A DNA stretch of 64,000 nucleotides from Phycisphaerales bacterium (GTDB lineage Bacteria > Planctomycetota > Phycisphaerae > SM23-33 > FEN-1343): positions 2,682-66,681 of the forward strand of contig PMYD01000025.1 in the NCBI GenBank assembly GCA_003171335.1, written 5' to 3'. Position numbers and translations under genes: made by a program. Under the pieces are notes generated by a model. The model was not told the origin of the DNA and made no database searches. It saw only the letters and a list, made by a program, of their open reading frames with translations. Each line of letters starts with the position of its first letter. Position 1 is the stretch's first letter. Shown piece after piece: positions 16,398 to 64,000 of this stretch.

Positions 16398-16398
16398 C

Positions 16399-18405: not shown

Positions 18406-18429
18406 GACAACCTCGGGCGTATTGCTGAA

Positions 18430-18551
18430 GGAATTGCGAATTGCAAATTGCAAATTGCAAATTGGGGAACTCCGAACCTCCCGCCGCTGTGGGCAGTGAG
18501 TGGCGATCCGGTGTCCCTGAATTGGCAATTTGCAATTCGCAATTGGCAATC
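18430..18551. repeat. palindromic element: (AATTGCA)n left arm and inverted (TGCAATT/TGGCAATT) right arm flanking an ~55 bp GC-rich core
   Basis: GGAATTGCGAATTGCAAATTGCAAATTGCAAATTGG ... GAATTGGCAATTTGCAATTCGCAATTGGCAATC. Sits immediately upstream of the HydS-HK start and downstream of the CheY gene stop. Confidence 0.8.
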
Positions 18552-18555
18552 TCTT

Positions 18556-18972
18556 CTAGCTGTCGTTTGGCGCGCAGGCCTTGTCGCCCAGCAGCCGGGC
18601 GACCTCCGCGCGGATCTGCTCAGCGCGGACGGGTTTATCGAGGATCAGGTCGGCCTTGACCCAGCTCTTGGCGTCTTCATCGTTGGGCACGAACGACAGG
18701 CCCGTGGCGGCGGCGACGGAGGTCAGCAGGATGACCGGCACATCCCCGTGCACGCGCTTGAGGTGGTAGGCCAGCACGAAGCCGCTGTCCATCTGCTCCA
18801 TCATCAGGTCCAGGATGGCCAGGTCGGGCTTTTGGCCTAAGAGCAGCTCCTCGCCCTGGCGCTGGCTGTGGCCGGCCTGCACCTCGTAGCCGTCGGCCTG
18901 GAGCACCAAGGTGAGTTGGGAAACGATGTCTTCGTCATCATCCACAATCAAGATTCTGGGCTTGCTGTTCAT
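18556..18972 (-). CDS. single-domain CheY-like response regulator (receiver only)
   Basis: Verified ATG (complement of 18970-18972): MNSKPRILIVDDDEDIV.. REC hallmarks ..DLAILDLMM.. and ..LLTSV... No output domain. Confidence 0.75.
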   Translation of the reverse strand: MNSKPRILIVDDDEDIVSQLTLVLQADGYEVQAGHSQRQGEELLLGQKPDLAILDLMMEQMDSGFVLAYHLKRVHGDVPVILLTSVAAATGLSFVPNDEDAKSWVKADLILDKPVRAEQIRAEVARLLGDKACAPNDS

Positions 18973-18992
18973 TTTCAAATGTCTCTCAGTTC

Positions 18993-19115
18993 GATTGCAA
19001 ATTGCCAATTGCAAATTGCCAATTAAAAACTCTTCCGCAGGAAGTGCCGCTTGATCGGCGCGGCGCCTCGCCGCAGCTCTTCAATTTGCAATTTGCAATT
19101 GGCAATTGGCAATCC
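18993..19115. repeat. palindromic element with (AATTGCA/AATTGCC) heptamer arms, related to 18430..18551
   Basis: GATTGCAAATTGCCAATTGCAAATTGCCAATT ... CAATTTGCAATTTGCAATTGGCAATTGGCAATCC. Fills the hydA-stop / CheY-start spacer. Confidence 0.8.
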
Positions 19116-20837: not shown

Positions 20838-20852
20838 GCCATATCCTCGTTA

Positions 20853-20975
20853 CCGTGGCACGGGCGTCTCGCCCGTGAGTCGCACGGGCATCTTGCCCGT
20901 GATCCGGCCGTTTCTTCTCAGTTTCCACGGGCGAGACGCCCGTGGCACTCATGGGCGGGACGCCCATGCTACTCT
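20853..20975. repeat. cluster of four CACGGGCG-NNNN-GCCCGTG family hairpins in the hydB-hydA intergenic spacer
   Basis: CACGGGCGTCTCGCCCGTG, CACGGGCATCTTGCCCGTG, CACGGGCGAGACGCCCGTGGCAC, CATGGGCGGGACGCCCATG, all read directly. A second cluster of the same family is at 38676..38795. Confidence 0.85.
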
Positions 20976-23900
20976 TAATCCGGTTGCGTGAACTCCAGGT
21001 CGCAGCGCAGGCAGCGGCGGGCCTCCTTGACGGCATCCGCCTCGCTGATACACAGCTCGACCTCGGCGAAGGTGCACTTGCGCTGGCCCACGGGCAGCTC
21101 GGGGCACTTGACGCGCTCGACGATTGTCTCCGACTCCTCATCGTCGCCGCCGCCCGCCACGGGCGCCACGTACACCCCCGGCACGATGGCCTTGGGCAGC
21201 ACGCGCATGGCCTTGCCGCGGACGAACCGGTCGATCATGGCCGCCGCTTGCTTGCCGGTGCCCACCGCCGCAATGACGGTGGCCGGCCCGGTCACGGCGT
21301 CGCCGCCGGCGAAGATGCCCGTGCGACTGGTCTGGAAGCTCTCGCCGTTGGTCGCCACCGAGCCCCAGCGCGTAAGCGTCAATTGTTCGAGACCCTCGGT
21401 CTCGGGCTCCTCGCTGATGGCCACGACCAGCGTGTCCAGCTCCAGGTCGAATTCCGAGCCGGCGATCGGCACGGGCCGTTGCCTTCCGGAGGCATCGCGC
21501 TCGCCCAGCTTGTTGCGCTGCAGGCGCAGGCCGGTGAGCTTGCCATCTTTCGTGTGCACGGCCAGCGGGGCGACCAGCTCTTCAAGCTTGACGCCCTCTT
21601 GCAGCCCGGCCTCGACCTCTTCGTGGTAAGCCGGCATCTCCTCGCGCGTGCGGCGGTACAGCACCGTGACGCTGGTGACGCCTTTTTGCCGCAGGGCCAC
21701 GCGGGCGGCATCCATGGCGGAGTTGCCGCCGCCGATCACGCCCACCCGCCCGTGCGCCAGCTCCTGCCCGTGCAGGTTATGGGCCTTGAGGAAGGTCATG
21801 CTCGGGATGACGCCGCGGGCATCCTCGCCGGCTAGATCAAGCTTCTTGGACTTATGAGCGCCCGTGGCCACATAGACCGCGCTAAAACCCTGGGCCAGCA
21901 GGTCGTCCAGGCTGAAATCGCGGCCCAGTGCCGTGTTGTAGCGGATCTCGACGTTGGGATTGGTCAGCGCATCGATCTCCCGCCGCAACAGATCGCGCGG
22001 CAGCCGGTACGCCGGGATGGCGCCCACCAGCATGCCGCCGGGCTTGGCCTCGCGCTCAAAGACGGTCACGCGATGGCCCATCAGCGACAGGCAGTTGGCG
22101 GCCGTGAGGCCCGATGGCCCCGCGCCGATGACGGCGATCTTCGCCGCATTGGCCGCCGCCGGCGCCACCGCGGGCGTACCGACGCCGGGGCTGACGTGGT
22201 CCACGACGAACCGCTTGAGCGTACGCACGGCCACCGACTCACCGCCGGTTGAGCCGGCGCGGCAGGCGTGCTCGCACGGGTGATGGCACACGCGGGCGCA
22301 GGCCGAGGGGAACGGGTTACTCTGCCGGATCACCCGGTAGGCCTCCTCGTATTCGCCGCGGCCGATGTGGGCCACGTACCGCCACACTTCCGTGCCGGCG
22401 GGGCAGGCGTTCTGGCAGGGCGCGCCCACCAGGCTCTTGCACGCCCCGGCGGGGCAGCGGCGCTCGAAGACATGCGCCTCGTATTCCGCGCGGAACCATT
22501 TCAGCGTGCTCAGCACCGGGTTGGCGGCGGTCTGACCTAAGCCGCACAGGCTGGTGGCCTTGATCATCTCGCCCAGCCGCTCCAGGTGCATGATGCCCTG
22601 CACCCGCAGCAGGCTGTCGAAGGGGCTCTCCTGGCGCGGGCTGCGCGTCAACGCCTGGAGGATTTCCAGCATGCGCTTGGTGCCTTCGCGGCAGGGAATG
22701 CACTTGCCGCAGCTCTCCGACTGGATGAACTCCATGAAGAACTTGGCGAAATCGACCATGCAGGTCGCCTGATCAACCACCACCAGGCCCCCCGAACCCA
22801 TGATGGTCCCAAACTTCTTGAGCGCCTCGTAATCGGTCGGAATATCCAGCTCTTTTTCCGGCACGCAGCCGCCGGAGGGCCCGCCGATCTGCACGGCTTT
22901 GCACGCCTTGTTGTTGGGAATGCCGCCGCCGATATCAAACACCACCTGCCGCAGCGTGGTGCCCATGGGCACCTCCACCAGGCCGGTGCGGCGGACCATG
23001 CCCGAGAGGGCGAACACCTTGGTGCCCTTGGAGCTGGCCGTGCCCATGGCGGCGTACCACTGCGGGCCAATGTCAAGAATAAGGGGCAGATTCGCCAGCG
23101 TCTCCACGTTGTTGATGACCGTGGGCTTGCCGAACAGGCCCTTGACCGCCGGGTAGGGCGGCCGCGGCCGCGGCATGCCGCGCCGGCCTTCGATGCTGTG
23201 GATGAGCGCCGTTTCCTCGCCGCACACGAACGCGCCGGCGCCCTGCTTGATGACGATCTCCAGGGAGAAGCCGCTGTCCAGCACGTTCTCGCCGATCAGC
23301 CGGTACTGCCGCGCCTGGGCCATCGCCTGCTGAAGGCGGCGGATGGCCACGGGGTACTCGGCGCGGATGTAGATGTACGCCTTGGACGCGCCGATGGCGT
23401 AGGCCGCGATGAGCATGCCTTCCAGCAGCCGGTGCGGATCGCTCTCGCCCACGGCCCGGTCCATGAACGCGCCGGGGTCGCCCTCGTCGGCGTTGCAGAT
23501 GAGATATTTCTGGTTCGCCTGGGAGGCGCGGGCGAATTTCCACTTCTTGCCAGTGGGGAACCCGCCGCCGCCGCGGCCGCGCAGGCCGCTGGCTTCCACC
23601 TGGTCGCAGACTTCCTCGGGCGTCATCTTGCCCAGCACCTTGGCCACGGCCGAGTAGCCGCCCCAGGCGATGTATTCATCGATGCTTCCCGGGTCCAACA
23701 GGCCGCTGGTGGCCAGCACCACGCGCCGCTGGCGGATGAGGAACGGGTGCTCGTCGAGATAGCGCACCTGGTCCCAGGGCTTTAGCAAGAGCCCTTCCTG
23801 CCGGAACTGGCCCAGCGCCGCGCCCTCGGCGACCTTGGCATCGACCAGCACCGCCTTGAGCACGGCCTCGACCTTGTCGGCCGTGGCATTTCCAAAGCAG

Positions 23901-24259
23901 ATGCGCGTGCGGCCGGGCATCTGCACATCGAGCAGGGGCTCTTCCGAGCACAGGCCGATGCAGCCGACCTCGATCACCTCGGCATCGAGATTGCCCTTGG
24001 CGATGTACTCGCGCACGGCGGCGAGCGTTTTGCCCGCCCCAGCGCCCAGGCCGCACGTGCCGGTGCCGATGAAGATCACCGGCTTGGCCACATCCTGGCG
24101 GCGCAGGGCCGACAGCCGCCCGGCCAGCACATCGGCCCCCGCGCTCTTGGCGGCGGCCAGCGGGCCGGCGGGAATCCAGTCCAAGAGCTCGGGCGAGACC
24201 GGCCGAGCGCCCAGCCAGCAACGATCAAAAGCCACGGCAGCGGTATTAGCATCCGGCAT
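20975..24259 (-). CDS. hydB: hydrogenase NADH-dehydrogenase-like subunit HydB: NuoF (51 kDa, FMN/NAD-binding) fused to a C-terminal GltD-like FAD/NAD(P) oxidoreductase domain
   Basis: Verified ATG (complement of 24257-24259). NuoF hallmarks ..GGGGFPTGKKW.., ..LICNADEGDPGAF... Cys-rich Fe-S motifs. Then a GltD-like region: ..CQNACPAG.., ..KIAVIGAGPSGLTAA.., ..GRVGVIGGGNSAMD... Confidence 0.85.
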   Translation of the reverse strand: MPDANTAAVAFDRCWLGARPVSPELLDWIPAGPLAAAKSAGADVLAGRLSALRRQDVAKPVIFIGTGTCGLGAGAGKTLAAVREYIAKGNLDAEVIEVGCIGLCSEEPLLDVQMPGRTRICFGNATADKVEAVLKAVLVDAKVAEGAALGQFRQEGLLLKPWDQVRYLDEHPFLIRQRRVVLATSGLLDPGSIDEYIAWGGYSAVAKVLGKMTPEEVCDQVEASGLRGRGGGGFPTGKKWKFARASQANQKYLICNADEGDPGAFMDRAVGESDPHRLLEGMLIAAYAIGASKAYIYIRAEYPVAIRRLQQAMAQARQYRLIGENVLDSGFSLEIVIKQGAGAFVCGEETALIHSIEGRRGMPRPRPPYPAVKGLFGKPTVINNVETLANLPLILDIGPQWYAAMGTASSKGTKVFALSGMVRRTGLVEVPMGTTLRQVVFDIGGGIPNNKACKAVQIGGPSGGCVPEKELDIPTDYEALKKFGTIMGSGGLVVVDQATCMVDFAKFFMEFIQSESCGKCIPCREGTKRMLEILQALTRSPRQESPFDSLLRVQGIMHLERLGEMIKATSLCGLGQTAANPVLSTLKWFRAEYEAHVFERRCPAGACKSLVGAPCQNACPAGTEVWRYVAHIGRGEYEEAYRVIRQSNPFPSACARVCHHPCEHACRAGSTGGESVAVRTLKRFVVDHVSPGVGTPAVAPAAANAAKIAVIGAGPSGLTAANCLSLMGHRVTVFEREAKPGGMLVGAIPAYRLPRDLLRREIDALTNPNVEIRYNTALGRDFSLDDLLAQGFSAVYVATGAHKSKKLDLAGEDARGVIPSMTFLKAHNLHGQELAHGRVGVIGGGNSAMDAARVALRQKGVTSVTVLYRRTREEMPAYHEEVEAGLQEGVKLEELVAPLAVHTKDGKLTGLRLQRNKLGERDASGRQRPVPIAGSEFDLELDTLVVAISEEPETEGLEQLTLTRWGSVATNGESFQTSRTGIFAGGDAVTGPATVIAAVGTGKQAAAMIDRFVRGKAMRVLPKAIVPGVYVAPVAGGGDDEESETIVERVKCPELPVGQRKCTFAEVELCISEADAVKEARRCLRCDLEFTQPD

Positions 24260-27642: not shown

Positions 27643-27722
27643 TTGCCGACCGTATTGGCGGTTCCTCCATGTCCTTAACATTCAAGCAATTGCAGCCGCG
27701 TATCCGATAATTGCCTTAGGCC

Positions 27723-29555
27723 ATGGACGGCGCCCGCTATAACCCTGCGCTGCTTGATCTGCTGGGCAAAACCCCCGGACCCGCGGCCGGCCGCGCGCTG
27801 GCGTGGGCGCTGGAAAAGAGCGACGGCGTCGTGCAGGCGGCGGTGCTGCGGCGGCTGCTGGGGCGGGCCGAGGAGGCCACGCGCCAACACATCGCCAGCA
27901 TGCTGCCGGCCATGCACGAGCCGGCCCGCAAGATGCTCTGCACCGAGCCATCCCTGCTTGAGCCGGTGGCCCGCGTGGGGTTGGCCGCCAAGGAGCCGGC
28001 GGTGCGGCTGTGCGTGGTGGAGCTGCTGGCCGAGGCCTGCCAGCCGAATTACGCCTATCTGCTGGCCACCACCGTCAACGACAATTCCGAGCTGGTCCGC
28101 AAGCAGGCCGCACAGGCGCTTTGCCAGATCGTCCGCCAGCATGCCGGCGATCCCGACGCGGCCACCCTGCACCTGCGGCCGGCGGTGATGGCGGCCATAT
28201 CCACCTTCCGCGCCCACCAGCTCGACGACACCGTCGAGGCGGCCGTCCTGCTGGGCTTCCAGTGCCCGCAGGAGGTGCTTGACCAGTTCAACGATCCGCT
28301 GCAACACCTCGTGGCGCCGCTGACGATCGTGCTGCGAAAGATGGATGGCTCGGCCAGCGCCGGGTTCGTGCTGTCGTGCCTGCAATACAGCCAGCTCGCT
28401 CCGGTGGCGCGGGCCCATATCGCCCACTGCGACTGGCCCGCGCTGGGCCAGCTTGGCCAGCACGAGCACTGGCTGAGCCTCAAAAACGTCTCGGGGGCGC
28501 TGGCGGCGATTCGAAACCTGCGGGCCGTGACGGAGGACCCCAACGGCCTGACCGAGCTGCCCTCCGACCTCCAGGGCGGGGCCTTGCGCATGGCCATGGC
28601 CACGGGCATTGCCCGCAAGTTCAAGGACATGCTGCTGGCGCTGGCGCTTTCGGGCGAGGCCGCGCTGGCCCAGGCGGCACTGCCGATCCTGCTGTCCGAG
28701 CGGGCCGATGCCCCCGAACTGCTGCTGATGGCCCTGCACAGCCGCTCCAGCCAGGTGCAGTCGCTGGCGGCGGCGAAGATCGTCTCGGGCGGACCGGATA
28801 GCCAGCTCATGGGCCACCTGCTGGAGGTGCTGCCCAACCTGGAAGAGCCGGTCCACTCGATGATCAGCGAGTACCTCGGCGCCGGCGGGTTCGACCGGTA
28901 CTGGCGAAACTACAATCGGCTCGATGGCGAGGTTCGTCAGCAGGCCGGCGCGGCGCTGCAAAAGCTGGATGGCCGGCTGGCCGACCACCTGGCCGCACGG
29001 CTGTTCAGCCCCGAAGTCAGCGAGCAGCTCCAGGCCGTGCAGATGGTGCGGCAACTGGGCATGGTGGACCGATTCGGCAACACGTTGTGCCAACTGGCCC
29101 GGCACGCCGGCCGCACAATCCGCTCGGCGGCGGCGATGGCCCTGGCCGATGTGAAAACCTTCGACGCCCGCTCCACGCTGGCCCGCTGCCTGCATGATGA
29201 CGATGAGCGCGTGCAGGCCAACGCCGTCGAGGCTTTGGCGGCTGGCGGCGGCGCTGCCTCCATCGTGGCCGACAAGATGGACAGCGCGCACAATCGCACG
29301 CGGGCCAACGCCATCAAATGGCTGCTGGAGGCCGGGCATCCCGCCGGCCCCAAGGCGTTGACGGCCATGCTCACCGACACCCGCGCGGCCCATCGGCTCA
29401 GCGCCCTGTGGGTGGTGAAGATGCTGCGCTACGCGGGAGCGTCAACCGTGCTGGATCAGTTGGCCATTCGCGATACCGACGCCAAGGTCCGCGCCCGCGC
29501 CGCCAGCGTTCGCCGGCTGCTCGATATGCCCCAAACCCAGGAGGCGGGCGCATGA
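27723..29555 (+). CDS. HEAT-repeat (PBS-lyase-like) protein
   Basis: 610 aa of repetitive alpha-helical ..AVR..A..ALG.. units typical of HEAT/PBS-lyase repeats, e.g. ..DDDERVQANAVEALAA.. and ..DTDAKVRARAASV... Confidence 0.55.
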   Translation: MDGARYNPALLDLLGKTPGPAAGRALAWALEKSDGVVQAAVLRRLLGRAEEATRQHIASMLPAMHEPARKMLCTEPSLLEPVARVGLAAKEPAVRLCVVELLAEACQPNYAYLLATTVNDNSELVRKQAAQALCQIVRQHAGDPDAATLHLRPAVMAAISTFRAHQLDDTVEAAVLLGFQCPQEVLDQFNDPLQHLVAPLTIVLRKMDGSASAGFVLSCLQYSQLAPVARAHIAHCDWPALGQLGQHEHWLSLKNVSGALAAIRNLRAVTEDPNGLTELPSDLQGGALRMAMATGIARKFKDMLLALALSGEAALAQAALPILLSERADAPELLLMALHSRSSQVQSLAAAKIVSGGPDSQLMGHLLEVLPNLEEPVHSMISEYLGAGGFDRYWRNYNRLDGEVRQQAGAALQKLDGRLADHLAARLFSPEVSEQLQAVQMVRQLGMVDRFGNTLCQLARHAGRTIRSAAAMALADVKTFDARSTLARCLHDDDERVQANAVEALAAGGGAASIVADKMDSAHNRTRANAIKWLLEAGHPAGPKALTAMLTDTRAAHRLSALWVVKMLRYAGASTVLDQLAIRDTDAKVRARAASVRRLLDMPQTQEAGA

Positions 29556-36890: not shown

Positions 36891-38549
36891 CTATTGAGGC
36901 GGGCGGTCTGCCACGACATCCGTGAGCAGATAGCGGGGTTTGTACTGTTCCAGGCGCGGTCCGCGTCGAGCCAGGAATTCCTGCTCGGCCCGCGCAAAGA
37001 GGTCGCTGGGGGCCGAGCTGATGCGCAGCGGCCCCAGCCGGCCGGAAAAACGCTTGGCGGCGTACTCGACGTTTAACTTCTGCAGCGCCGAATCGACGGC
37101 CGCCGCCAGTTGCTCCAGGCGATCGCTCTGGAGCTGCACGGACAGGTGGTAATAGGGCAATTCGGCGAAGTGTCCTTGGGCGATGAAGTTCTGGATGGGC
37201 AGCCCGAGACTGGCGGCGGCGTGGGCGACAGCCTCGACGATCTGGTTCTCCGTCAGCTTTTCGCCGGTGATGCTGGCGGTATGGGCGCCTTTGGAGAGGA
37301 ACTCGATGAGGGGCGTTTCGCCCATCCAGCCGGTAACGCGGATGCGGTCCTGGATGTGGTATCGCCACAGGCCGGAAAAATTGGTGACCACGAGGAAATA
37401 CTCGCGCCCGGCCTCCAGCTCGTGAATGGGCAGGGCCATCGGCTCTTTGGCGGGCTCATGCTCGGCCGGGATGAACTCGAAAAGCGAGCTGGTGACCTCG
37501 GCCACGCCGGCCGCGGTGCCATCGACAAAAGGCACGCTGAATCGGCCCTCGCTGGCCAAGAGACCCACATCGCGGATGGGCACCCCGCCGGTGAGCTGGC
37601 GGACCTGCGGCAGGTACAGCCCCAGCGTGCCGCCGGTCCAGTGCATCAGCGAGGAGAGTCGCCAGAAATGGCCCGCGCGCAGGCGCCCATCGCGCGCCAG
37701 CCCCTGCTCAATGCGCTTGACCAGTTGGGCGTGGCGGCGAAGCGGCAGGCTTTTCACCAGCGCCGCCGGCACATCGCCGGGCGGGGTAAGCGTGCCATCG
37801 CGCAGATCGCGCAGCAGCCCCTCGATGTGGTGCTCGGCCGTCATCAGCAGCTTGATGATGGTAGAGGGGTTGGCCGTGGAGATGAGCGCCACATCGCGCG
37901 GCATGGCCAGGCGCATGAGCGTGTAGTACTTGGCCTGCGGGTCGGCGATGTTCGTGACGGCCGGCGGGGCGACGTACATGCGGCGGACGATCCGCTTTTG
38001 CACCTGGCCCAGCATGCCGGAAATCGCCCCGCAGGGGATGCCCGTGGGGCTGTAGCTTTCGACCGCCGGGCTGGAGACCTGGAGGATCGGCCGCAGCCAG
38101 GCGTCGGGGTGGTCGCAGAGCAGCTTGTAGCCGAAGACGTTCCAGCCGCGCCGGTAATCTTCCAGCGACTGGCGGGTGATGGGAATGCACTTGGGCTGGC
38201 CGGTCGTGCCGCTGGTGATGGCGAACATGAGGATGGCAGTCCCGCGCGGGAACATGGCCTCCGCATCGCCCTCGTACACGGCCTGGAGATACGGCCGCAA
38301 CTGCTCATAATCGCGGATGGGGACGGCGGCGCGAAAATCGTCGTAGCTGCGCACGGCCGCCAGGCCGTGGTCGCGGCCGAAGCGCGTGTGGGCGTGAGTC
38401 TCCACCAGCCGCCGCAGCAATCGCTCCTGCGTGGCTCGGCCATCGGTGGCGGCGTGGGTGAAATAGTTGTACTGCCCGGCCGCGTGCACGGCGGCCAGGC
38501 GGGCGGCGGGTCTCAGCAACCAACGCGTGATGCCCACGGTCAGATCCAA
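36891..38549 (-). CDS. GH3-family (acyl-acid amido synthetase / adenylating) protein
   Basis: GH3-type N-terminal region ..VPIRDYEQLRPYLQAVYEG.. and ..TSGTTGQPKCIPIT... ~550 aa. The track's start is TTG; a GTG four codons in is equally possible. Confidence 0.7.
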   Translation of the reverse strand: MDLTVGITRWLLRPAARLAAVHAAGQYNYFTHAATDGRATQERLLRRLVETHAHTRFGRDHGLAAVRSYDDFRAAVPIRDYEQLRPYLQAVYEGDAEAMFPRGTAILMFAITSGTTGQPKCIPITRQSLEDYRRGWNVFGYKLLCDHPDAWLRPILQVSSPAVESYSPTGIPCGAISGMLGQVQKRIVRRMYVAPPAVTNIADPQAKYYTLMRLAMPRDVALISTANPSTIIKLLMTAEHHIEGLLRDLRDGTLTPPGDVPAALVKSLPLRRHAQLVKRIEQGLARDGRLRAGHFWRLSSLMHWTGGTLGLYLPQVRQLTGGVPIRDVGLLASEGRFSVPFVDGTAAGVAEVTSSLFEFIPAEHEPAKEPMALPIHELEAGREYFLVVTNFSGLWRYHIQDRIRVTGWMGETPLIEFLSKGAHTASITGEKLTENQIVEAVAHAAASLGLPIQNFIAQGHFAELPYYHLSVQLQSDRLEQLAAAVDSALQKLNVEYAAKRFSGRLGPLRISSAPSDLFARAEQEFLARRGPRLEQYKPRYLLTDVVADRPPQ

Positions 38550-52129: not shown

Positions 52130-52330
52130 AACGACCTTGCTGAGTCTATCTTATTAGCGCGATCACCTTGCACGCAAGCCTCCCGACCGCTGGCCGCCTG
52201 CAATGCGCGCCTGGCGGACATGCCGGCGGGCAAGCTTTACGAGCGTTGCCGCTTCAAGCATCGCCTGCCGCCGGCGGGTATGATTAGCCTGAGCGCGGCA
52301 AGCTGTCGCCGACGCGGAGGTGGGGTATTC

Positions 52331-53759
52331 CATGCGCGTACTGATCGTCAGTTCTAACCGCATCCGCCAGCCGGTGATGGTGCTTCCCTCGGGCGCCTGC
52401 CTGGTCGCTGAGGCGGCCGAGCGGGCCGGGCACGCCGTGCGGCTGCTGGACCTGATGTTTGAAAAGTGGCCGCACGAGGCGCTCCGCCGCGCGCTGGTCG
52501 ACTGGCGGCCGGCGGTCGTGGGCCTGTCCATCCGCAACATCGACACGAACGATGCTCGCAACCCCGTCGTCCTGGCCGATGAGGCGGCCGAGCTGGCTCA
52601 GGTTGTTCGCCGGTGCAGCGATGCCAAACTTGTTCTGGGGGGTGCGGCTCTGGGCGTCATGCCGCACGAACTTTTGCGCCGGACAGGGGCCGACTATGCG
52701 GTCGTCTTCGACGGCGATGTGGTCTTCCCCCAGTTGCTCGATTCACTCGCCGCCGGCCGCGAGATCCGCGGCTTGGCGGGCGTTCTGGCGCCCGGCGATG
52801 TGGCGCTGCCGGCGCGGCCGGCCGGCGGGGGGGAGCTGGCAAGCTGCACGCCGCAGGAACTGTCGCGCTGGGTCCAGGTGCGCCCTTACCTCTCGAATAT
52901 GGCTGCCGTGGGGCTGCAAACCAAGCGCGGCTGCCCGTTCGAGTGCATCTACTGCACGTACAGCATGGCCGAAGGCCACGAATATCGGCTCTGCCCGCCC
53001 GAGCAGGTGGTCGCGGCTGTGCGGCGGCTGGCCGCGCAGGGGCTGCGCGATGTGGAGTTCGTCGACAACGTTTTCAACTCGCCGTACGAGCACGCCCTGG
53101 CGATCTGCCGCCAGCTCGCCGTCGCCCGGCTTGGCGTGCGGCTGCAAAGCCTCGAGCTGAACCCGCGATTTCTCGATGATGAACTTCTTTGGGCCATGGA
53201 GCAGGCGGGTTTTGCCGGCATCGGCGTAACGGCCGAGAGCGCCAGCGATGTCGTTTTGGCGGGGCTGAAGAAGGGCTACACCGCCGAGCAACTTCGCCTA
53301 GCCGCCGGCGCGGTGGCCCGCCACGCCATTTCTTGCGTGTGGATCTTCATGCTGGGGGGCCCCGGCGAAACGCCCGACACCGTGCAGGAGACGCTGGAAT
53401 TCGCCACGCGCTGCATACGCCCCAGCGATACCGCCTTCTTCCAGACCGGCATTCGCATCTATCCCGGCACGCCGCTGGAGCAGATCGCCCGCGCCCAGGG
53501 CGTGTTGACCGCCGCCGGCGACGACATGCTCGCGCCGGTGTTCTACATCAGCCCGCAGATGTCGCTAAGTGGCCTGAAAGCCCAGGTGAATGCCGCCGTC
53601 CGCACCCACATGAATTTCGTCGCCGTCGATGCCATCGGCCTGCCGCTGTTCCAGACGGTGCTTCGGGCGTGCTATCGCCTGGGTGTCCGCCCGCCCGTGT
53701 GGCGCTACACTCCCGGCGTGCGGCGGCTGCTGAAGTGGACGGGGCTCTACGGCGGCTAG
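52331..53759 (+). CDS. B12-binding-domain radical SAM protein (class B rSAM)
   Basis: N-terminal Rossmann-like B12-binding region (MRVLIVSSNRIRQPVMVLPSGACLVAEAAERAGHAVRLLDL..). Radical SAM motif CPFECIYCTY. ATG 52331 has a GGAGGTG SD; the track's 52320 is GTG. Confidence 0.75.
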
Positions 53760-53932
53760 CCGATGGGAATGCGCGGTGACTTGATTCCTGGCGCGACTTC
53801 GGGAATTGCCCGTGGTGTAAGTGTTACAGTCTGTCCGCGGCGGACACCTGAATTTCTATCGCCACAGGTGGCCCCCATTGCGGTCCGGTCTGTCTTGCCG
53901 ATCGACCGATTAACGGATTAACCTCTTCCCAG

Positions 53933-55075
53933 ATGGCCGCCGCAACTGGATACAATAAGAACGCAGTACCAGGAGAAGCCCCCGTGGGGACAATCATTCG
54001 ATCGCTGGCAACGGCGAATCCGGCTCGCTACGTCACTGGCCGTGAGGCCTACGATTTCCTCACCGGGCATTTTGCCCTGGGGGCGCCGCAGCGCGACCTG
54101 TACCGCCGGCTGCTCATCGATGGGCCCATCCGGGGACGTTACATGGGCCTGGAGTACGATGAGCAGGTATGCCTCATGTCCGCCGATGAGCAGCTCGATC
54201 GCTTCCAGAAGCAGGCGCTGGCCATGGCCACGAGGGCGGCGGCCGAGGCGCTGGCGGCGGCCAAACTCCAGCCGGCCGATGTGGGCGGCCTGGTCGTCAA
54301 CACCTGCACGGGCTACCTGTGCCCGGGGCTCTCCTCTTATGTGGCCGAGGCGCTGGGCCTGGCCGAGTCGGTCCGCGTGCTGGATGTGATGGGCATGGGC
54401 TGCGGCGGGGCGCTGCCTAACCTCCAGTCGGCCTGCGGCCTGCTGGCGACGGGGGAAACGAACGGGCGCTCGCGGCCGGTGCTGTCGATCGCCGTGGAAG
54501 TGTGCTCGGCCACGATTTACATGGGCGATGATCCGGGCCTGATCGTCAGCAACTGCCTTTTCGGCGATGGCGCCGCCGCCGCCGTGCTTTCGTTGAATGG
54601 ACACGCACAGGAAGAGTCGCCGCCGGCCGGCGGCCCGCGGGCGCCAAAACTGCTCGATTTCGAGTCGCAAGTCCTGCCCGCGCACCGGGAATCGCTGCGC
54701 TATCACCACGAGCAGGGCCGGCTGCGCAACACGCTGAGCATCCGCGTGCCGGTCATCGCCGGCCGGGCCATCCGCCAGTTGACCGGGAGGCTGCTGGCAC
54801 GCCACGGCCTGTCCATTGGCGATATCAACTGGTGGGCCATCCACCCCGGCGGCACCGCCGTGCTGGAGCAGGCGGCCAAGGAGTTGGCGCTGCCGAGCGA
54901 TGCCCTGCGCTATTCGTACGAGGTTTTCGCCGAGTACGGCAACATGTCCTCGCCTTCGGTCCTGTTCGTCCTGAAGCGCCTGCTGGAGCGCGCGCAGCCG
55001 CCCAAAGGCCAGAAAGGCCTGTTGCTGTCGTTCGGGGCCGGATTCACCGCGTTTGGTGCGTTGGTGGAGTTCTAG
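53933..55075 (+). CDS. type III polyketide synthase (chalcone/stilbene synthase family)
   Basis: Catalytic Cys in ..VMGMGCGGALPNLQ... His in ..WWAIHPGGTAVL... Asn in ..FAEYGNMSSPSVLFVL... Thiolase-fold size (380 aa). Confidence 0.8.
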   Translation: MAAATGYNKNAVPGEAPVGTIIRSLATANPARYVTGREAYDFLTGHFALGAPQRDLYRRLLIDGPIRGRYMGLEYDEQVCLMSADEQLDRFQKQALAMATRAAAEALAAAKLQPADVGGLVVNTCTGYLCPGLSSYVAEALGLAESVRVLDVMGMGCGGALPNLQSACGLLATGETNGRSRPVLSIAVEVCSATIYMGDDPGLIVSNCLFGDGAAAAVLSLNGHAQEESPPAGGPRAPKLLDFESQVLPAHRESLRYHHEQGRLRNTLSIRVPVIAGRAIRQLTGRLLARHGLSIGDINWWAIHPGGTAVLEQAAKELALPSDALRYSYEVFAEYGNMSSPSVLFVLKRLLERAQPPKGQKGLLLSFGAGFTAFGALVEF

Positions 55076-58292: not shown

Positions 58293-59474
58293 TCACCGGC
58301 TGCCCAGATCCAGCGCCCTTTGGCGATAGTAGCGGTAGTTTGCCAGCGTGACCTCGGCGGGCACTCCGTGATCGCACGTGGGCGTGTATCCGCCGCGGGC
58401 ACGCATCACGGGGAGGATGCGATCGAGCATTTCATCGATGGCCTTGGGGCCCCGGGCGAGCACGCGCTTATCGATGCCGCCGGACATGACGAGGTATGGA
58501 AACTGTCGCCCGATCTCGACGACGTCGCACCCGCTGGCGACCTCGAAGGGGCTCATCACGTCCAGGCCGATCGCCCGGTGATAGAGATCGATGACGGGCA
58601 CGCAGAAGCCGTCGGTGTCCACCTGGACGTAGAGGTGCCGCGATGGGTCGAGCTGGCGGGCGCGGATGCCCTTCAACAGCTCCTGGTAGTACGGGAAGAA
58701 GAATTCGGCAAAGATGCTTGGGCTGACCAGGGAGCCGTGGTTATAGCAGATATCTTCAGCGAAGAAGACCTCATCCAGCGTGACCTGCTGCTGGTGGCGG
58801 GCGGTGACGGCCTGCGCCAGCTTCAACCAGGCGCGCATGGCATCGTGAATGACATCGGGCATGTCGTAGAAGGCCAGCATCATGTTCTCGACGCCCAGCA
58901 TGGCCCGCAGGTACATGCCGGCCCCGGCGATGCGCTGGACGATGAGCTTGCCTTGCCGGGGGGCGGCGGTGGCCACGGCCATGTACTGCGGCAGCTTGTC
59001 GAACCGCCCGGGGGCCTCCGGGTCCAGCCGCCAAAGGCACTGTTCTTCCCAGGTCTTGCGGTCTTTAAGCACATGATCCACGTATTCAGGCATGAAGCCG
59101 CTGCGCCGGCCAGCAAAGCACTTGACGTGCCGGCCAGCGAAATCCTGGACGATTTCGTAAGGGCCCTGGACCTCCAGGACCTTCTCTTCAAAGAAGGGCC
59201 AGTATCCCGGCTCGCACCAGCCCAGGCCGCCGAGGTTCACGGTGGCAGGCTCGTCGAAGCAGAACTCGCGGGGCAGGTCGGCCTGGGCGTCCAGGCCCTG
59301 CTTGCGCCATTCATCCAGGCAGAAGTACCCGAACTCCTTTTGGAAGAGCGGGGCTCCCGGCGTCATGGCATAAACATCGCGCAGCTTACGGGCCGACGGA
59401 TGCATCTGCTCGCGGGGGACCATGGCGTGAATGCCGTCGGCTACAGTTGTGTCCGGCTTGTTCAAAGGGGACAT
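58293..59474 (-). CDS. uroporphyrinogen-decarboxylase (URO-D/MtaA/CmuA)-like family protein
   Basis: TIM-barrel URO-D-like length and C-terminal ..GGYTPTCDHGVPAEV.. region. Start MSPLNKPD.. at the complement of 59472-59474 (weak SD); upstream in-frame residues are possible. Confidence 0.5.
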   Translation of the reverse strand: MSPLNKPDTTVADGIHAMVPREQMHPSARKLRDVYAMTPGAPLFQKEFGYFCLDEWRKQGLDAQADLPREFCFDEPATVNLGGLGWCEPGYWPFFEEKVLEVQGPYEIVQDFAGRHVKCFAGRRSGFMPEYVDHVLKDRKTWEEQCLWRLDPEAPGRFDKLPQYMAVATAAPRQGKLIVQRIAGAGMYLRAMLGVENMMLAFYDMPDVIHDAMRAWLKLAQAVTARHQQQVTLDEVFFAEDICYNHGSLVSPSIFAEFFFPYYQELLKGIRARQLDPSRHLYVQVDTDGFCVPVIDLYHRAIGLDVMSPFEVASGCDVVEIGRQFPYLVMSGGIDKRVLARGPKAIDEMLDRILPVMRARGGYTPTCDHGVPAEVTLANYRYYRQRALDLGSR

Positions 59475-59698
59475 TATCGGAGATTTCCAATACGAGGTTC
59501 TACCGACGACCATCGCCAGCAATATGGCAATTTTACGAAGCCGTGGCGTCTCGACAAGCGAATTTGCGGCGCCGCCAGTCGCTGCGGAGGGTACTGGCCA
59601 TGACCGAATTCTCGATGCCGTTGGGAATCACCGGAGACAGCGCTAGTATTTCAATGATTGCTGCGGGCTGGACCGGGATATTTATAAGGAGTCCAAGT

Positions 59699-59821
59699 AT
59701 GGAACAGCCTCAAAGACAAGCGTATGTGTCCCCCACATTGGAAAAGCAGCAGCTACTCCAGGAAGTGACCGAGGCCTGTAAGACCACCGCGGCCGCGGTC
59801 TCGGCCGCAGTCATCAGCTAA
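59699..59821 (+). CDS. candidate RiPP precursor peptide (40 aa) ending in Ser
   Basis: MEQPQRQAYVSPTLEKQQLLQEVTEACKTTAAAVSAAVIS. Strong AAGGAG SD 7 nt upstream. Its TAA stop overlaps the ATG of the HPr-kinase-like gene (TAATG). An in-frame upstream ATG (59600) would give 73 aa. Confidence 0.35.
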   Translation: MEQPQRQAYVSPTLEKQQLLQEVTEACKTTAAAVSAAVIS

Positions 59822-60846
59822 TGGCCTGGGGGTGTGGCAACCAGCTCAGACGGTACGACGTGCATGGGTTAATTCTGCACGTCGTGCCGGACGAGCCTGC
59901 CCTGCTGGAACCTGTCGATCGCGTCCTGCGGCCATTCATCACGGAAACACAGTTCGACGAACCCGATACTTTTGTGTTGCGCCTCTCGCGCCGGACGGCG
60001 CGGCAGGAGGTTGCTGCGGTTCTGCCGTGCATCTGGAGCGGCCAGATGCCCGGCGGTTGTCCGGGCCGGTATCTGGCCGCCGGCTTAAGACGACAGATTG
60101 AGTTGACGGATCGCGCCATCGCCAGTGTGGACCTGGCCAGCCGGCAAGCTCGCATTGTGCTGCTTACCGACGATGACCGGTGGATCACCTTCGGCTGCCT
60201 TACGCCACTGCTGACGGAAATGCTGCACAGCCGCGGCTGGCATGTCGTGCACGCCGCCTGCCTGCGCCTTGGCAGAGAACCTGGCGGCCCGGTCGTTTTG
60301 CTGTGCGGCTCCAGCGGCATGGGCAAAACCACCACCGCCCTGGCCCTCTCTCGCGGACAGATGCGCCTGCTGGCCGATGACGCCGTCTTTGCCCGAATCG
60401 ACAGCAACGGCGCGTGGGTCTGGGGACTGGGTCGGCCCTGCAAGGTGCATCCGCACACGCGCCTGTTGCTTGGCTGGCTGGCCGAACTACCGTCAGAGCC
60501 GGCGGTGAATGCGGAGGAAGGCGTTATGGCTTTCTCCCTTCTCGGCGATCCGACTCCCCGTGTCGCCCATCCGGCCGTGGTCCTGGTCCTGGAGCCGCGC
60601 AATGCCGTGGCGCACCATCTGCGACCCCTGCACAAGAACGAGGCGCTGGTGCACCTGGTGCGAGAGAACGTTCGCTGGTTGAAGGGGTCGGCGGCCTTTG
60701 CGGCGATGGCCGGCATCGTGCGAGCCTGCGGCTGCTACGGCCTGAGCGTCGGCCCTGATCTGAATGTCCTGCACCAGGCAATTCTATCTCTGCCGGAACT
60801 GAACCATGCGCTCGCGCATCAATCGATGGCTGGTGGCCTTGTGTGA
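59821..60846 (+). CDS. HPr-kinase/phosphorylase-related serine kinase (peptide-modification-associated)
   Basis: P-loop ..LLCGSSGMGKTTTALAL.. in an HprK C-terminal-domain-like context. No N-terminal HprK domain. Confidence 0.6.
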   Translation: MAWGCGNQLRRYDVHGLILHVVPDEPALLEPVDRVLRPFITETQFDEPDTFVLRLSRRTARQEVAAVLPCIWSGQMPGGCPGRYLAAGLRRQIELTDRAIASVDLASRQARIVLLTDDDRWITFGCLTPLLTEMLHSRGWHVVHAACLRLGREPGGPVVLLCGSSGMGKTTTALALSRGQMRLLADDAVFARIDSNGAWVWGLGRPCKVHPHTRLLLGWLAELPSEPAVNAEEGVMAFSLLGDPTPRVAHPAVVLVLEPRNAVAHHLRPLHKNEALVHLVRENVRWLKGSAAFAAMAGIVRACGCYGLSVGPDLNVLHQAILSLPELNHALAHQSMAGGLV

Positions 60847-61837
60847 CCCGCAGGGCCTGGCGGACTTGCCTGCTGGCCGCATGCCCCTGTCCGATGTCGT
60901 TCCGCTGATGGCGCGGGCCGAGCAGCAAGGCGTCGGGCCGGTGGTCCTGGCCAACCTGGAACGCTGGGCGCAAACGCAGTCGATTCACCGGAAACAGTGC
61001 GCCTCGGCGGCTCCGTTGGCGGCGCTGCTGGCGGCCTCTCGCCCGCGGATCCTGCATCAGGCCGGCCTGGCGCTGATGCTGCGCGCTGCCAGCGGCGCCC
61101 TGGTGAGGGCCTTGGCCGCAGCGCGCGTGCCGGCCACGGTGCTCAAAGGCACGGATTTTGCCGATCGGCTCTACCCGGTGGCAGCGCTGCGGCCACAGCG
61201 CGATGTCGATCTGCTGGTGCCGCGCGATGCCTTGGCGACCGCCGAGGCCGTGCTGGGCGGTCTCGGTTACGCCGCCGTGCCCGATCCGCCGAGGAAGTAC
61301 AAAGATGGCTACGGCCAGCGCATCTGGCGCCGCGACGACGCGGGCGCGGTCGTGGAACTGCATTGGAACCTGGTGAATTCCCCTGCCGTGCGCCGCGGCA
61401 TCAGCGTGCTGTACGAGGACCTCACCTTCGAGCCGGCCGTCATGCCCGGCAGCCTGCCGCGCCTGACGGCGGCATCGTGCGTGCTCCTGGCGGCCGTGCA
61501 CGGCGCCACCAGCCATAGTTTCGAACGGCTCCAACTGCTGTGCGACATCCGGCAGTTGGCTCGCGGAGCCGCCGGACCGATCGATACGGCCTGGCTGGCG
61601 GATGCGGCTTCTCGCACCGGCAGCCTGTCGGCGCTGGGCGTGGCGCTGCGATTGACGGCGCAGACGCTGCGCTGCCCGTCGTGCTCGGTGCTCTGCCAGT
61701 CGCTCGGTCCGCGGCTGCCATCGCGGTGGAGCTGGGTCCTGACTCCGGCGGTCGTGCTGGGCGAAGCGCCTTTGGGCGCGGTCCGGCGGCAACTGTTTCG
61801 TCACCTGCAGAAGAATCCCCCATGCTCGTCCTTGTGA
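60806..61837 (+). CDS. nucleotidyltransferase-family protein of the type found beside PqqD/lasso-like clusters
   Basis: ..LKGTDFADRLYPVAALRPQRDVDLLVPRDA.. resembles the hG[GS]..D.D signature of minimal nucleotidyltransferase-fold proteins. Overlaps the kinase 3' end by ~40 nt. Confidence 0.5.
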   Translation: MRSRINRWLVALCDPQGLADLPAGRMPLSDVVPLMARAEQQGVGPVVLANLERWAQTQSIHRKQCASAAPLAALLAASRPRILHQAGLALMLRAASGALVRALAAARVPATVLKGTDFADRLYPVAALRPQRDVDLLVPRDALATAEAVLGGLGYAAVPDPPRKYKDGYGQRIWRRDDAGAVVELHWNLVNSPAVRRGISVLYEDLTFEPAVMPGSLPRLTAASCVLLAAVHGATSHSFERLQLLCDIRQLARGAAGPIDTAWLADAASRTGSLSALGVALRLTAQTLRCPSCSVLCQSLGPRLPSRWSWVLTPAVVLGEAPLGAVRRQLFRHLQKNPPCSSL

Positions 61838-61931
61838 TTTGTACGCGTTGCTGGGCACGCTGGCCTTGTCGCGGCCAGGTGGCAGTCTTGTTCGCAGCAC
61901 AGAAAGAACGATCTTGCGCGGAGCTCGCACC

Positions 61932-62219
61932 ATGATCACCTTGGAAAGCGTTCTGGAACTTCCTCCCGCCACCGCCTGCCAATCGCTGGGCGTGGGGCAG
62001 GACAGCGTCATCCTCTCGATGGACAGCGGCTACCTGTATACCGGCAACCAGACCACCCACGCATTCTTGAACGCCCTGGATGGCCGCCGCACGCTGGGCC
62101 AGGTGGCCGATGTGCTGGCGGGACAGTTCGACGTGCGGCTGGAACGCCTGCAGGCGGATCTGCTGGCCTTGGCCGGCCGGCTGCTCGACGAGCGGCTGAT
62201 CGTCGTGGTGAAGAACTGA
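61932..62219 (+). CDS. PqqD-family RiPP recognition element (B1-like) protein
   Basis: MITLESVLELPPATACQSLGVGQDSVILSMDSGYLYTGNQTTHAFLNALDGRRTLGQVADVLAGQFDV...LQADLLALAGRLLDERLIVV matches the PqqD-family pattern (..Y.LN.T...IW.LLDG.RTL.EI...L...F..). An alternative TTG start is at 61839. Confidence 0.65.
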   Translation: MITLESVLELPPATACQSLGVGQDSVILSMDSGYLYTGNQTTHAFLNALDGRRTLGQVADVLAGQFDVRLERLQADLLALAGRLLDERLIVVVKN

Positions 62220-62629
62220 TGGCCGTGCGAACGGCGGTCTTGCGATGCCACATCTGGCTGGTGGCCAGCTTGATACCCCTGCTGGACCGTCTGCTGTCGT
62301 TGGCAGGTTTGCTGCGGCTGCTGACTCCCCATCGGCCGTGGAAGCTTTACCGCGGCCTTGGAAGCCAGCCTGTGGTGCAGGCGGTGCGCCGCCGGCTGGG
62401 CAGGCCCACGCACATGCGCCGCCGGGCGTGCCTGCGCCTGGGCATCACGCTGTACCACTTCCTGCGGTTGGCCGGCCTGCCTGCCCAACTGCGGTTTGGC
62501 GTGTACCCGCCACAAACGCAGGGAGGCCGTCGGATGCACGGCCACTGCTGGGTCTTGCTCAATGGTCGTTGCCTGGCCGACCCGCCCGACGAGCCGGTGG
62601 TCCAGGTACTTGTTTGGCCGGCCTCATAG
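62219..62629 (+). CDS. lasso-peptide B2-like (transglutaminase-core) cysteine protease homologue
   Basis: Start overlaps the PqqD-gene stop. ..RRACLRLGITLYHFLRLAGLPAQLRFGV...RMHGHCWVLLNGRCLADP.. matches the Cys...His-Cys-Trp-Val...Asp-Pro pattern of leader-peptidase B2 proteins. Confidence 0.5.
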   Translation: MAVRTAVLRCHIWLVASLIPLLDRLLSLAGLLRLLTPHRPWKLYRGLGSQPVVQAVRRRLGRPTHMRRRACLRLGITLYHFLRLAGLPAQLRFGVYPPQTQGGRRMHGHCWVLLNGRCLADPPDEPVVQVLVWPAS

Positions 62630-63743: not shown

Positions 63744-64000
63744 TCATCCATGCTCCCGCGCGGCATCGTAAGCGGCGATCACGTTCTCCGGCGGCACGTT
63801 GGCCTGGAGATTGTGCACGGGTGTGAAGATGTAGCCGCCGCCGCGCGAGAAGACATCGATGTTCCGACAGGCCACATCGCGGACCTCCGCGGCGCTGGCT
63901 CTATCCAAGATGCCCTGGGTGCTCACGCCTCCGCCCCAGAACGCGATGTCCCGCCCGAACTCTCGCTTCAGGCGCTCCGGAGACATGCCGGCGGCCGTGA
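63744..64000 (-). CDS. second URO-D/MtaA-like family protein, C-terminal end only (5' part beyond window end)
   Basis: ..DIAFWGGGVSTQGILDRASAAEVRDVACRNIDVFSRGGGYIFTPVHNLQANVPPENVIAAYDAAREHG is a typical URO-D/MtaA C-terminus. Confidence 0.5.
   Translation of the reverse strand, partial: TAAGMSPERLKREFGRDIAFWGGGVSTQGILDRASAAEVRDVACRNIDVFSRGGGYIFTPVHNLQANVPPENVIAAYDAAREHG

Follow-up and report, generated by a model that had tools for sequence, protein, structure and literature searches.

A cyclase-less cassette combining a HprK-like kinase with lasso-type leader processing in a Phycisphaerales bacterium: a candidate pathway to short linear phosphorylated peptides

Introduction

In the paeninodin and pseudomycoidin clusters, the kinases PadeK and PsmK phosphorylate the C-terminal Ser of a linear precursor and can add several phosphates (PMC8498205, PMC6993621), and PsmN is needed for the addition of one or two hexoses to the phosphate (PMC6993621). 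In the bsf cluster of Bradymonas sediminis (bsfA, B1, B2, C, D, K, N), BsfB1 speeds phosphorylation by BsfK and presents the leader to both the kinase and the B2 protease (PMC10368454). The linear polyphosphorylated peptides (LPPs) of Bacillota, encoded by lppA-K-B-S-D-N, were described by Popov et al. (Nat Commun, May 2026; PMC13381572); BsfK and LppK act at Ser3 of the core (PMC10368454, PMC13381572). In this paper we describe a five-gene cassette for a peptide that is made ribosomally and then modified post-translationally (RiPP) in Phycisphaerales bacterium (GenBank assembly GCA_003171335.1, contig PMYD01000025.1, positions 2,682 to 66,681), a stretch of 64,000 nucleotides that we refer to as the window. 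The cassette encodes a precursor peptide (A), a putative peptide kinase (K), a nucleotidyltransferase-fold protein (N), a discrete RiPP recognition element (RRE; B1) and a lasso-type cysteine protease (B2), and no lasso cyclase was found with it.

About half of the discrete lasso-type RREs detected by RRE-Finder are not adjacent to a lasso peptidase and cyclase, and that work does not describe a cassette of the present type (PMC7470986). The cassette would account for one coherent slice of these unexplained RREs. We propose, with a probability of roughly 0.65, that it is a cyclase-independent descendant of a phosphorylated lasso-peptide pathway and that its product is a short linear Ser-phosphorylated peptide, probably further decorated. 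A sequence-only reading of the window had suggested a distinct, lasso-related RiPP pathway, and this suggestion is supported by the cyclase-less gene set found in at least four phyla, with its conserved leader and hypervariable short cores.

Results

Operon layout

The five genes lie head to tail on the + strand (59699-62629, approximately 2.9 kb) in the order A-K-N-B1-B2, and all five open reading frames (ORFs) are present as the coupled set that the sequence-only reading had listed. Precursor gene A (59699..59821, +) encodes the 40-aa peptide MEQPQRQAYVSPTLEKQQLLQEVTEACKTTAAAVSAAVIS, an assignment made from the ORF and its membership of a precursor family, and the strong Shine-Dalgarno site claimed for it was located as AAGGAG at 59686..59691 (+), 7 nt 5' of the ATG as read from the sequence. 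A purine-rich Shine-Dalgarno block is also kept upstream of both precursor genes of the nearest relative, L042 (database loci carry L numbers here). The stop of A and the start of K overlap in TAATG, as had been described; the overlap of K and N, previously given as 40 nt, measures 41 nt. Of the ATGA-type junctions that had been proposed, the one between N and B1 does not hold, these genes being separated by a gap of 94 nt; B1 and B2 do overlap, in TGATG. A TTG at 61839 was considered as the start of B1 and rejected, having support from neither the family alignment nor the gene callers.

N is 100% identical to a database protein (P0038), whose European Nucleotide Archive contig, L037, shares 13,195 nt with the window without a difference. 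Gene callers annotate a 73-aa ORF from an upstream ATG (window 59600-59821; L037 8795-9016) instead of the 40-aa A, which has a Shine-Dalgarno site and family support yet is missing from a collection of 15 billion proteins. K, N, B1 and B2 are all labelled 'hypothetical protein'. A promoter and terminator scan was uninformative, with match counts at the level of shuffled sequence. Two genes of the uroporphyrinogen-decarboxylase-like (URO-D) family stand on either side of the cassette, both on the other strand (58293-59522, -, and 63744-64000, -, the latter running past the window end), and no URO-D-like genes were seen beside the cassette in other loci.

The precursor family: leaders and cores

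Sequence comparison indicates that the small ORF A is a genuine gene and not a chance ORF, because its leader pattern is in excess over shuffles and because DNA conservation breaks at the leader/core junction. The strict leader pattern was found in 44 ORFs (40 distinct) in the fetched loci, mostly beside the cassette, versus 0-1 in each of 20 residue shuffles. In L042, whose kinase is 65% identical to K, there are two precursors with a leader (MEQSxKQAYEAPTLEKxQLLQEVTE) nearly the same as that of the window, followed by cores of eight (GSGAVVIS) and seven (GDVIIVS) residues. When the DNA of the window and L042 is compared, conservation extends from the Shine-Dalgarno site through the leader, collapses at the leader/core junction and is resumed at Ser-stop-ATG; the differences among leader codons are mostly at third positions.

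The leader consensus is KKxYxxPxLEKRxxLxEV[TAS]x, followed directly by the core, with a spacing in the 40 distinct precursors of Y (0), P (+3), L (+5) and T/A/S (+15), then one residue and the core. The residue at -2 is T in 20 of these precursors, A in 13 and S in 7. Because this spacing equals the register known for lasso B1/B2 proteins, Tyr(-17), Pro(-14), Leu(-12) and Thr(-2) (PMC10368454, PMC13381572), cleavage of the window peptide is predicted between Glu25 and Ala26. The predicted leader thus comprises residues 1-25 (59699-59773, +), with Y9 at -17, P12 at -14, L14 at -12 and T24 at -2, and the predicted core, by the same lasso-type register, residues 26-40, ACKTTAAAVSAAVIS (59774-59818, +). 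The leader therefore carries the YxxPxL and Thr(-2) expected of lasso precursors (Y9, P12, L14, T24). The core does not have the features of a lasso core, namely Asp or Glu at positions 7-9 and a length sufficient for ring, loop and tail: it begins with Ala and contains neither Asp nor Glu, as the sequence-only reading had noted. It has one Cys (Cys27) and several Ser and Thr.

Across the family (n=40) the cores are hypervariable and mostly 7-19 aa long (median approximately 11), with four longer ones reaching a maximum of 38 aa. Gly is the first residue in 18 of 40. Every core contains Ser or Thr, and 32 of the 40 contain [VIL][ST]; D or E occurs at core positions 7-9 in only 7 of 40, and there is no conserved acidic ring acceptor. 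In the subclade of the window (the window, both precursors of L042, L001 and L039) all five cores end in two hydrophobic residues and Ser, the last three being VIS, VIS, IVS, AAS and AVS.

Several loci carry more than one precursor gene, with eight copies in L017, five in L003 and three each in L006, L016, L018, L020 and L034. Arrays in which one leader is joined to differing cores are found at L017 2619-4413, in a metagenome-assembled genome of Planctomycetota, and at L003 9403-9949 and 15466-15855. Short hypervariable cores together with multi-copy precursors suggest a diversifying signalling or conflict function.

The kinase

K (59821..60846, +, 341 aa) is a putative P-loop peptide kinase of the HprK/phosphoenolpyruvate (PEP) carboxykinase (PEPCK) fold, identified from sub-threshold profiles, an AlphaFold2 fold and its motif. 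The P-loop reads G163-S-S-G-M-G-K-T-T171, and the motif residues are H144, G163, G166, G168, K169, T170, D186 and D187. In an alignment of 14 family members H144, G166, G168, K169, D186 and D187 are invariant; G163 and T170 are absent from the list of invariant residues. This motif is essentially equal to that of BsfK, in which H148-G163-G166-G168-K169-S170-D186-D187 was found by mutagenesis to be needed for peptide phosphorylation (PMC10368454), the likeness being one of motif and not of full sequence comparison.

The match of K to the Hpr_kinase_C profile is sub-threshold (5.5e-5). Against the NCBIfam models for HprK-related kinases A (TIGR04352) and B (TIGR04355), K scored 30.5 and 21.1 bits where the cut-off is 200, and the NCBIfam profile search returned no match of K to ScmC (TIGR04249). 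Other members of the kinase family scored 16-43 bits against the curated cut-offs of 125-200 for these three models; because all tested members fall below them, the clade of the window kinase is without a curated model. Sequence searches of the PDB with K, N and B2 gave marginal HprK P-loop matches or nothing. The AlphaFold2 model of K (predicted local distance difference test score, pLDDT, 89.1) aligns across both of its domains with ATP- and GTP-dependent PEP carboxykinases, the best PDB folds, with a Foldseek E of approximately 1e-9. HprK/P belongs to the PEP carboxykinase fold superfamily. In its modelled structure K has an HprK/PEPCK-type kinase fold, and the HprK-related kinase (GSSGMGKTT) named in the sequence-only reading can be retained as regards P-loop and fold, with the profile evidence remaining below threshold.

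The nucleotidyltransferase, the RRE and the protease

The remaining three assignments of the sequence-only reading, a minimal nucleotidyltransferase, a PqqD-family RRE and a transglutaminase-core B2-like protease, were each confirmed by profile searches. N (60806..61837, +, 343 aa) matches PF14907 (NTP_transf_5) with an E of 1.9e-33 and 116.5 bits, against a gathering threshold of 31.2. It contains the motif R-D133-V-D135-LLV, and G115 and D133-x-D135 are invariant in the family. Its AlphaFold2 model (pLDDT 89.1) finds its nearest folds in MenT1, ANT(2'')-Ia and LnuA, a weak likeness (Foldseek E approximately 2e-4; template modelling (TM) score 0.35-0.65).

B1 (61932..62219, +, 95 aa) is a discrete PqqD-type RRE matching PF05402 (PqqD) with an E of 3e-10, and its extent is supported by the gene call on the source contig and by conservation within the family. 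Its best NCBIfam matches are lasso PqqD chaperones, all below cut-off. B2 (62219..62629, +, 136 aa), a predicted lasso-type transglutaminase-core cysteine protease, passes the NF033537 (lasso_biosyn_B2) cut-off of 33 with 41.2 bits and matches PF13471 (Transglut_core3) with an E of 1.9e-10. The putative catalytic triad is C71, H109 and D121, the last lying 12 residues past H109; among 22 family members the Cys is conserved in 100% and the His in 95%. The operon also occurs on a 3.9-kb contig from another sample, where the region of B2 is split or altered (L038 2658-3565), with a 166-aa call lacking any Pfam match and the B2 profile match in two pieces. Either the sequence or its assembly is in error here, or the allele is disrupted.

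Search for a lasso cyclase and an exporter

The window was scanned against Pfam with eighteen ORFs of at least 400 aa not covered earlier and two shorter ones, in addition to the larger ORFs scanned before, cluster flanks included. No match to Asn_synthase (PF00733) was found among the long ORFs scanned across the 64-kb window. Contig L037 continues to window-equivalent 71,837, that is, 7.8 kb past the window end, and the precomputed Pfam list for this contig contains no PF00733 for approximately 9.2 kb downstream of B2; the genes there encode a fn3 protein, a URO-D-like protein, three hypothetical proteins, a glycosyltransferase family 4 (GT4) protein, an 811-aa protein with no Pfam match and ThiF. 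The absence of a lasso cyclase within 5 kb on either side, as claimed in the sequence-only reading, is thus extended to the window and to this downstream region, including the sequence just beyond 64 kb in which that reading had left room for a cyclase gene. PF00733 is also absent from the precomputed Pfam lists of 12 genomic contexts, each covering approximately 10 kb on either side of the queried gene.

Searches for an AsnB homologue or a PP-loop motif found no Asn synthetase in 744 kb of window and related loci, although these searches had limited sensitivity and no positive control. A phmmer probe with Escherichia coli AsnB (L032), run with filters off, gave nothing better than an E of 2.7, its sensitivity for lasso cyclases being limited. 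Matches to the PP-loop patterns SGGxDS and [ST]GGxD[ST] proved to be a calpain-like peptidase (L001), a HEAT-repeat protein (window 27720-29552) and a 382-aa ORF (L040), none of which is an Asn synthetase. In L036 and L040 a protein of 525-534 aa is coupled upstream of K; these proteins were considered as divergent cyclases and set aside, as they have no Pfam match at E<=1 and the window encodes no counterpart.

The Pfam lists covering approximately 10 kb on either side of the cassette include no signal-peptidase family. Exporters are found near some relatives only (L004/5, L036 and L041).

Distribution and variants of the cassette

The kinase family comprises 37 clusters at 90% identity when searched with a single sequence and 80 when searched with a profile. 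It is sharply bounded, with a drop from an E of 1e-38 to 1e-11, and a search of 1.84 billion proteins gives 287 representatives at 50% identity with E<=1e-30. Every named member is annotated 'hypothetical protein'. The co-occurrence of the families, which the sequence-only reading had put forward as a check, was seen throughout: K, N, B1 and B2 occur together in every locus with a complete contig, approximately 19 independent loci (the window, L001, L003, L004/5, L007, L008, L010-L014, L016, L018, L020, L033-L036 and L039). Gene order is A-K-N-B1-B2, B1-B2-A-K-N or A-K-N-rSAM-B1-B2, where rSAM denotes a radical S-adenosylmethionine protein, and the units A-K-N and B1-B2 are kept intact. The hosts are Planctomycetota, Verrucomicrobiota, Pseudomonadota and Desulfobacterota, with Mesorhizobium and other Hyphomicrobiales, Rhodobacterales, Steroidobacteraceae, Syntrophobacteraceae and Desulfobacterales among those named. 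As judged from these genes, the cyclase-less cassette forms a family conserved across four or more phyla and not a one-off. Streptomyces loci L021-L028, together with L029-L031, were rejected as unrelated; they match in the P-loop region only and lack N, B1, B2 and precursors.

A group of orthologous B12-binding rSAM genes, with mutual scores of 440-1050 bits, lies directly downstream of N in eight relatives, L003, L004/L005, L006, L007, L008, L018 and L033, and distally in L035, and is absent from the subclade of the window. The arrangement points to a variant of this RiPP family that is modified by rSAM and has V/I-S/T-G as an internal motif of the core. The window also has a B12-binding rSAM gene, which stands beside a type III polyketide synthase (52320-55075, +), 6 kb upstream of the cassette. 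Its product (52320-53759) scores approximately 64 bits against the orthologue group, compared with 440-1050 among the orthologues themselves; it was rejected as a cassette member and probably belongs to a separate pathway.

Further variants were noted. L040 and L041 have genes for an AMP-binding enzyme and a GNAT acetyltransferase between K/N and B1/B2. In a distant branch, a 525-534-aa protein is translationally coupled upstream of K (L036 8427-10004; L040 8400-10004). L034 has tandem kinase paralogues in one cassette (8592-9806 and 9860-10963), beside three precursor genes with two core types. The close relatives L001 (6425-8434, -) and L039 (4531-6255, -) have, upstream of B1, a divergently oriented gene for a calpain-like Peptidase_C2, which is absent from the window. 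The GT4 glycosyltransferase at L037 17160-18284 (window-equivalent approximately 67965-69089) is 5.3 kb downstream of B2, and L003 and L041 likewise have glycosyltransferases in the neighbourhood of the cassette; this is a weak association, and these genes may matter if the phosphate is glycosylated.

Other genes in the window

Pfam scans identified a [FeFe]-hydrogenase region on the - strand (10365-24259), with a HydF maturase (10365-11603, -), a HydG/HydE-like rSAM protein that includes a BATS domain (13507-14955, -), a sensory hydrogenase-histidine kinase in which HisKA/HATPase is joined to a hydrogenase large-subunit domain (16399-18549, -), a complete [FeFe]-hydrogenase (19116-20837, -) and a NuoF-like/Pyr_redox fusion (20975-24259, -). 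A complete GH3-family protein, with N-terminal, middle and C-terminal domains, is encoded at 36891-38549 (-). The GH3 acyl-acid amido synthetase family is best known from plants.

Discussion

Proposed product and mechanism

The observed gene content, catalytic motifs, folds, leader/core architecture and conserved absence of a cyclase are consistent with the following route, which is proposed by analogy as to each chemical step, its site, the order of steps and the biological role. The 40-aa precursor A would be translated and its leader bound by the PqqD-type RRE B1 through Tyr9, Pro12 and Leu14; B1 would present the leader to K and to B2. With the leader still attached, K would use ATP to phosphorylate a Ser of the core. 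We regard Ser40 as the likeliest site, at about even odds, with Ser35, in the 'AVSA' stretch, as the alternative. N may then add a further group to the phosphate or to Ser, either a hexose, as in the only tested homologue, or a nucleotide; that the N-dependent group is a hexose seems possible although somewhat doubtful. Finally B1 and B2 would cut after Glu25, with Thr24 at -2, and free the linear 15-mer ACKTTAAAVSAAVIS. No isopeptide ring is expected, because there is no cyclase and no acidic acceptor. The calculated [M+H]+ values are 4318.206 for the precursor, 2973.499 for the leader and 1363.725 for the unmodified core, and 1443.691, 1523.658, 1605.744 and 1772.744 for a core bearing one phosphate, two phosphates, phosphate plus hexose and phosphate plus AMP, respectively.

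Several points weigh against this proposal. K lies below the cut-off of every curated kinase family, and its substrate is deduced from context alone. The conserved Ser/Thr is internal in other subclades, so that the assignment of a C-terminal Ser rests on five sequences. Cyclase detection was made with no positive control, and the search covered the window and 7.8 kb of contig beyond it; a trans-acting cyclase might be encoded elsewhere in the genome. There is no exporter gene within approximately 10 kb (neither ABC_membrane nor ABC_tran), and the product may consequently not be secreted. As to the chemistry of N, LppN was inactive in a heterologous host (PMC13381572) and the activity of PsmN was shown in vivo only (PMC6993621).

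A different product would result if N transferred a nucleoside monophosphate from a nucleoside triphosphate onto the Ser hydroxyl or the phosphate installed by K, giving a peptidyl-(pyro)phosphoryl-nucleoside, a microcin-C-like Trojan horse or signal, rather than a phosphoglycopeptide. The nearest folds of N are all nucleotide-transferring enzymes (MenT1, ANT(2'')-Ia and LnuA), its G...DxD motif is invariant, the operon has no recognisable glycosyltransferase, and the authors of the PsmN study were undecided whether PsmN itself transfers the glycosyl group (PMC6993621). The fold likeness is weak, however; the sole N-dependent adduct in a homologous system is a hexose of +162 Da (PMC6993621), and no adduct was obtained from LppN (PMC13381572), so that we consider a nucleotide conjugate unlikely. 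Phosphorylation might alternatively serve as activation, with phospho-Ser/Thr as a leaving group yielding dehydroalanine or dehydrobutyrine, as in class III/IV lanthipeptides, and with a possible thioether to Cys27. Elimination after phosphorylation is established RiPP chemistry for class III and IV lanthipeptides (PMC8341899), PMC13352647 cites a lasso peptide that contains dehydroalanine and is made by a hybrid system, and the window core has its one Cys and several Ser/Thr. Since no lyase or cyclase domain is encoded in or near the cassette, N is unlike phospho-lyases, and Cys is missing from nearly all other family cores, those of the closest relatives included, such an activation appears quite improbable.

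The lasso-type character of B1, B2, K, N and the leader would also fit an ordinary phosphorylated lasso peptide made by a split cluster, in which a cyclase encoded elsewhere acts in trans; the cyclase checks covered the window, 7.8 kb of contig and the related loci, and those on the related loci relied on the AsnB phmmer probe and motif scans of limited sensitivity. Against this, no Asn_synthase was found in the 64-kb window and 7.8 kb beyond, and approximately 22 independent loci from four or more phyla all lack a cyclase. The predicted core offers no Asp or Glu for an isopeptide bond, and the cores of close relatives (GDVIIVS and GSGAVVIS), at 7-8 residues, are about as long as a lasso ring by itself and leave no room for loop and tail. 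Because the cores are acceptor-less and very short, we regard a cyclase in trans as essentially excluded. The missing cyclase and exporter, and the disrupted B2 region of L038, might instead mark the relic of a lasso cluster that lost both genes and makes no product, a view to which we attach hardly any credence. The five ORFs are intact and translationally coupled with conserved catalytic residues, the same cyclase-less set recurs across phyla in a kinase family of 287 representatives, and the leader codons of the window and L042 differ mostly at third positions; cores that diversify while the leader is held are the pattern of a functional RiPP.

The cyclase-independent descent of the cassette from a phosphorylated lasso-peptide pathway accordingly remains our preferred reading. 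More tentatively, and at somewhat less than even odds, it may represent a separate and widespread RiPP class of Gram-negative and Planctomycetes-Verrucomicrobia-Chlamydiae (PVC) group bacteria, in which ultra-short (7-19 aa) linear peptides are freed by lasso-type B1/B2 and K and N jointly install, as the modification that defines the class, a phosphodiester- or pyrophosphate-linked sugar or nucleotide on a conserved Ser/Thr. If so, the lasso leader-processing machinery would have been reused as a general delivery module, and the chemistry of NTP_transf_5 proteins would be revealed. With 2.9 kb, five genes and a 15-residue core, the cassette is a compact system in which to work out the chemistry of N. 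It also exposes an annotation gap, in that four enzymes are called hypothetical and the true 40-aa precursor is not called.

Comparison with known systems

The sequence-only reading knew of no characterised product for such a pathway. This stands for the present cassette family; as a concept, the cyclase-less phosphopeptide is no longer unprecedented, because work published in 2026 characterised the analogous LPP family of Bacillota (PMC13381572). Full-text searches, which left most subscription journals uncovered, found no account of a K/N cassette that has B2 but lacks a cyclase, and this absence is not proof. The sequence-only reading had equated kinase, B1 and B2 with the accessory genes of lasso clusters that contain a kinase, and K, N, B1 and B2 do form such a set in the bsf, pade and psm clusters (PMC10368454, PMC6993621).

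A further comparison is with the systems of HprK-related kinases A (TIGR04352) and B (TIGR04355) and ScmC of the SynChlorMet cassette (TIGR04249), distant HprK-like P-loop proteins found beside PqqD-family proteins, which include the best NCBIfam matches for K. The PqqD models that belong to these systems are not matched by the window PqqD.

The paeninodin and pseudomycoidin clusters of Firmicutes share with the window a HprK-like kinase, an NTP_transf-type N and a split B1/B2 pair (PMC8498205, PMC6993621), and their kinase phosphorylates the C-terminal Ser before leader removal, after which PsmN decorates the phosphate with hexose. Unlike the window cassette, these clusters possess a cyclase and an ABC exporter as well as an Asp acceptor and yield true lasso peptides, and their leaders are mostly WxxP (PMC13381572), whereas the window has YxxP. 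The likeness of the window K and N to PadeK, PsmK and PsmN is drawn from published descriptions and not from direct sequence comparison.

LPP clusters and the window cassette are both cyclase-less, with a HprK-like kinase, a discrete PqqD-type RRE and an NTP transferase of phosphorylated-lasso origin, and both have a YxxP-type RRE-binding motif in a conserved leader followed by a variable C-terminal part. A linear phosphorylated product, predicted for the window, has been shown for LPPs. The leader peptidase differs, being the family-defining SpI/SipW-like signal peptidase LppS in LPP clusters and a lasso B2 cysteine protease in the window, and the MsbA-like ABC exporter LppD of the core LPP cluster has no equivalent within approximately 10 kb of the window cassette. 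LPP precursors are 35-200 aa long, and the studied core, phosphorylated at Ser3, has 45 aa; cores of the window family are mostly 7-19 aa, ending in Ser in the window subclade. Of the LPP leader YxxPxVLxHQxIxFETxxS the window family matches YxxPx[LV] only. LPPs are reported as confined to Bacillota, whereas the window family occurs in Planctomycetota, Verrucomicrobiota, Pseudomonadota and Desulfobacterota. The cassette may thus represent the use of lasso B1/B2 leader recognition and cleavage without ring formation outside Bacillota, complementing the signal-peptidase-based LPPs, to which it would be the Gram-negative counterpart.

In gene content the window cassette is the bsf set minus C and D (PMC10368454). 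The two share K, N, B1 and B2, Gram-negative hosts and a kinase motif, H-G-G-G-K-S/T-D-D, at almost identical positions, and the B1-dependent action of the kinase on a leader-bearing precursor, shown for Bsf, would be expected in the window. The bsf cluster has the cyclase BsfC, the ABC transporter BsfD and a ring-capable core, whereas the window lacks both genes and any acidic acceptor. The target of BsfK is Ser3 of the core and BsfA ends in Asp, while the window core ends in Ser; the residue at -2 is Ile in Bsf and Thr in the window. LPP clusters are the closest functional precedent for the window cassette, and bsf is its closest architectural relative.

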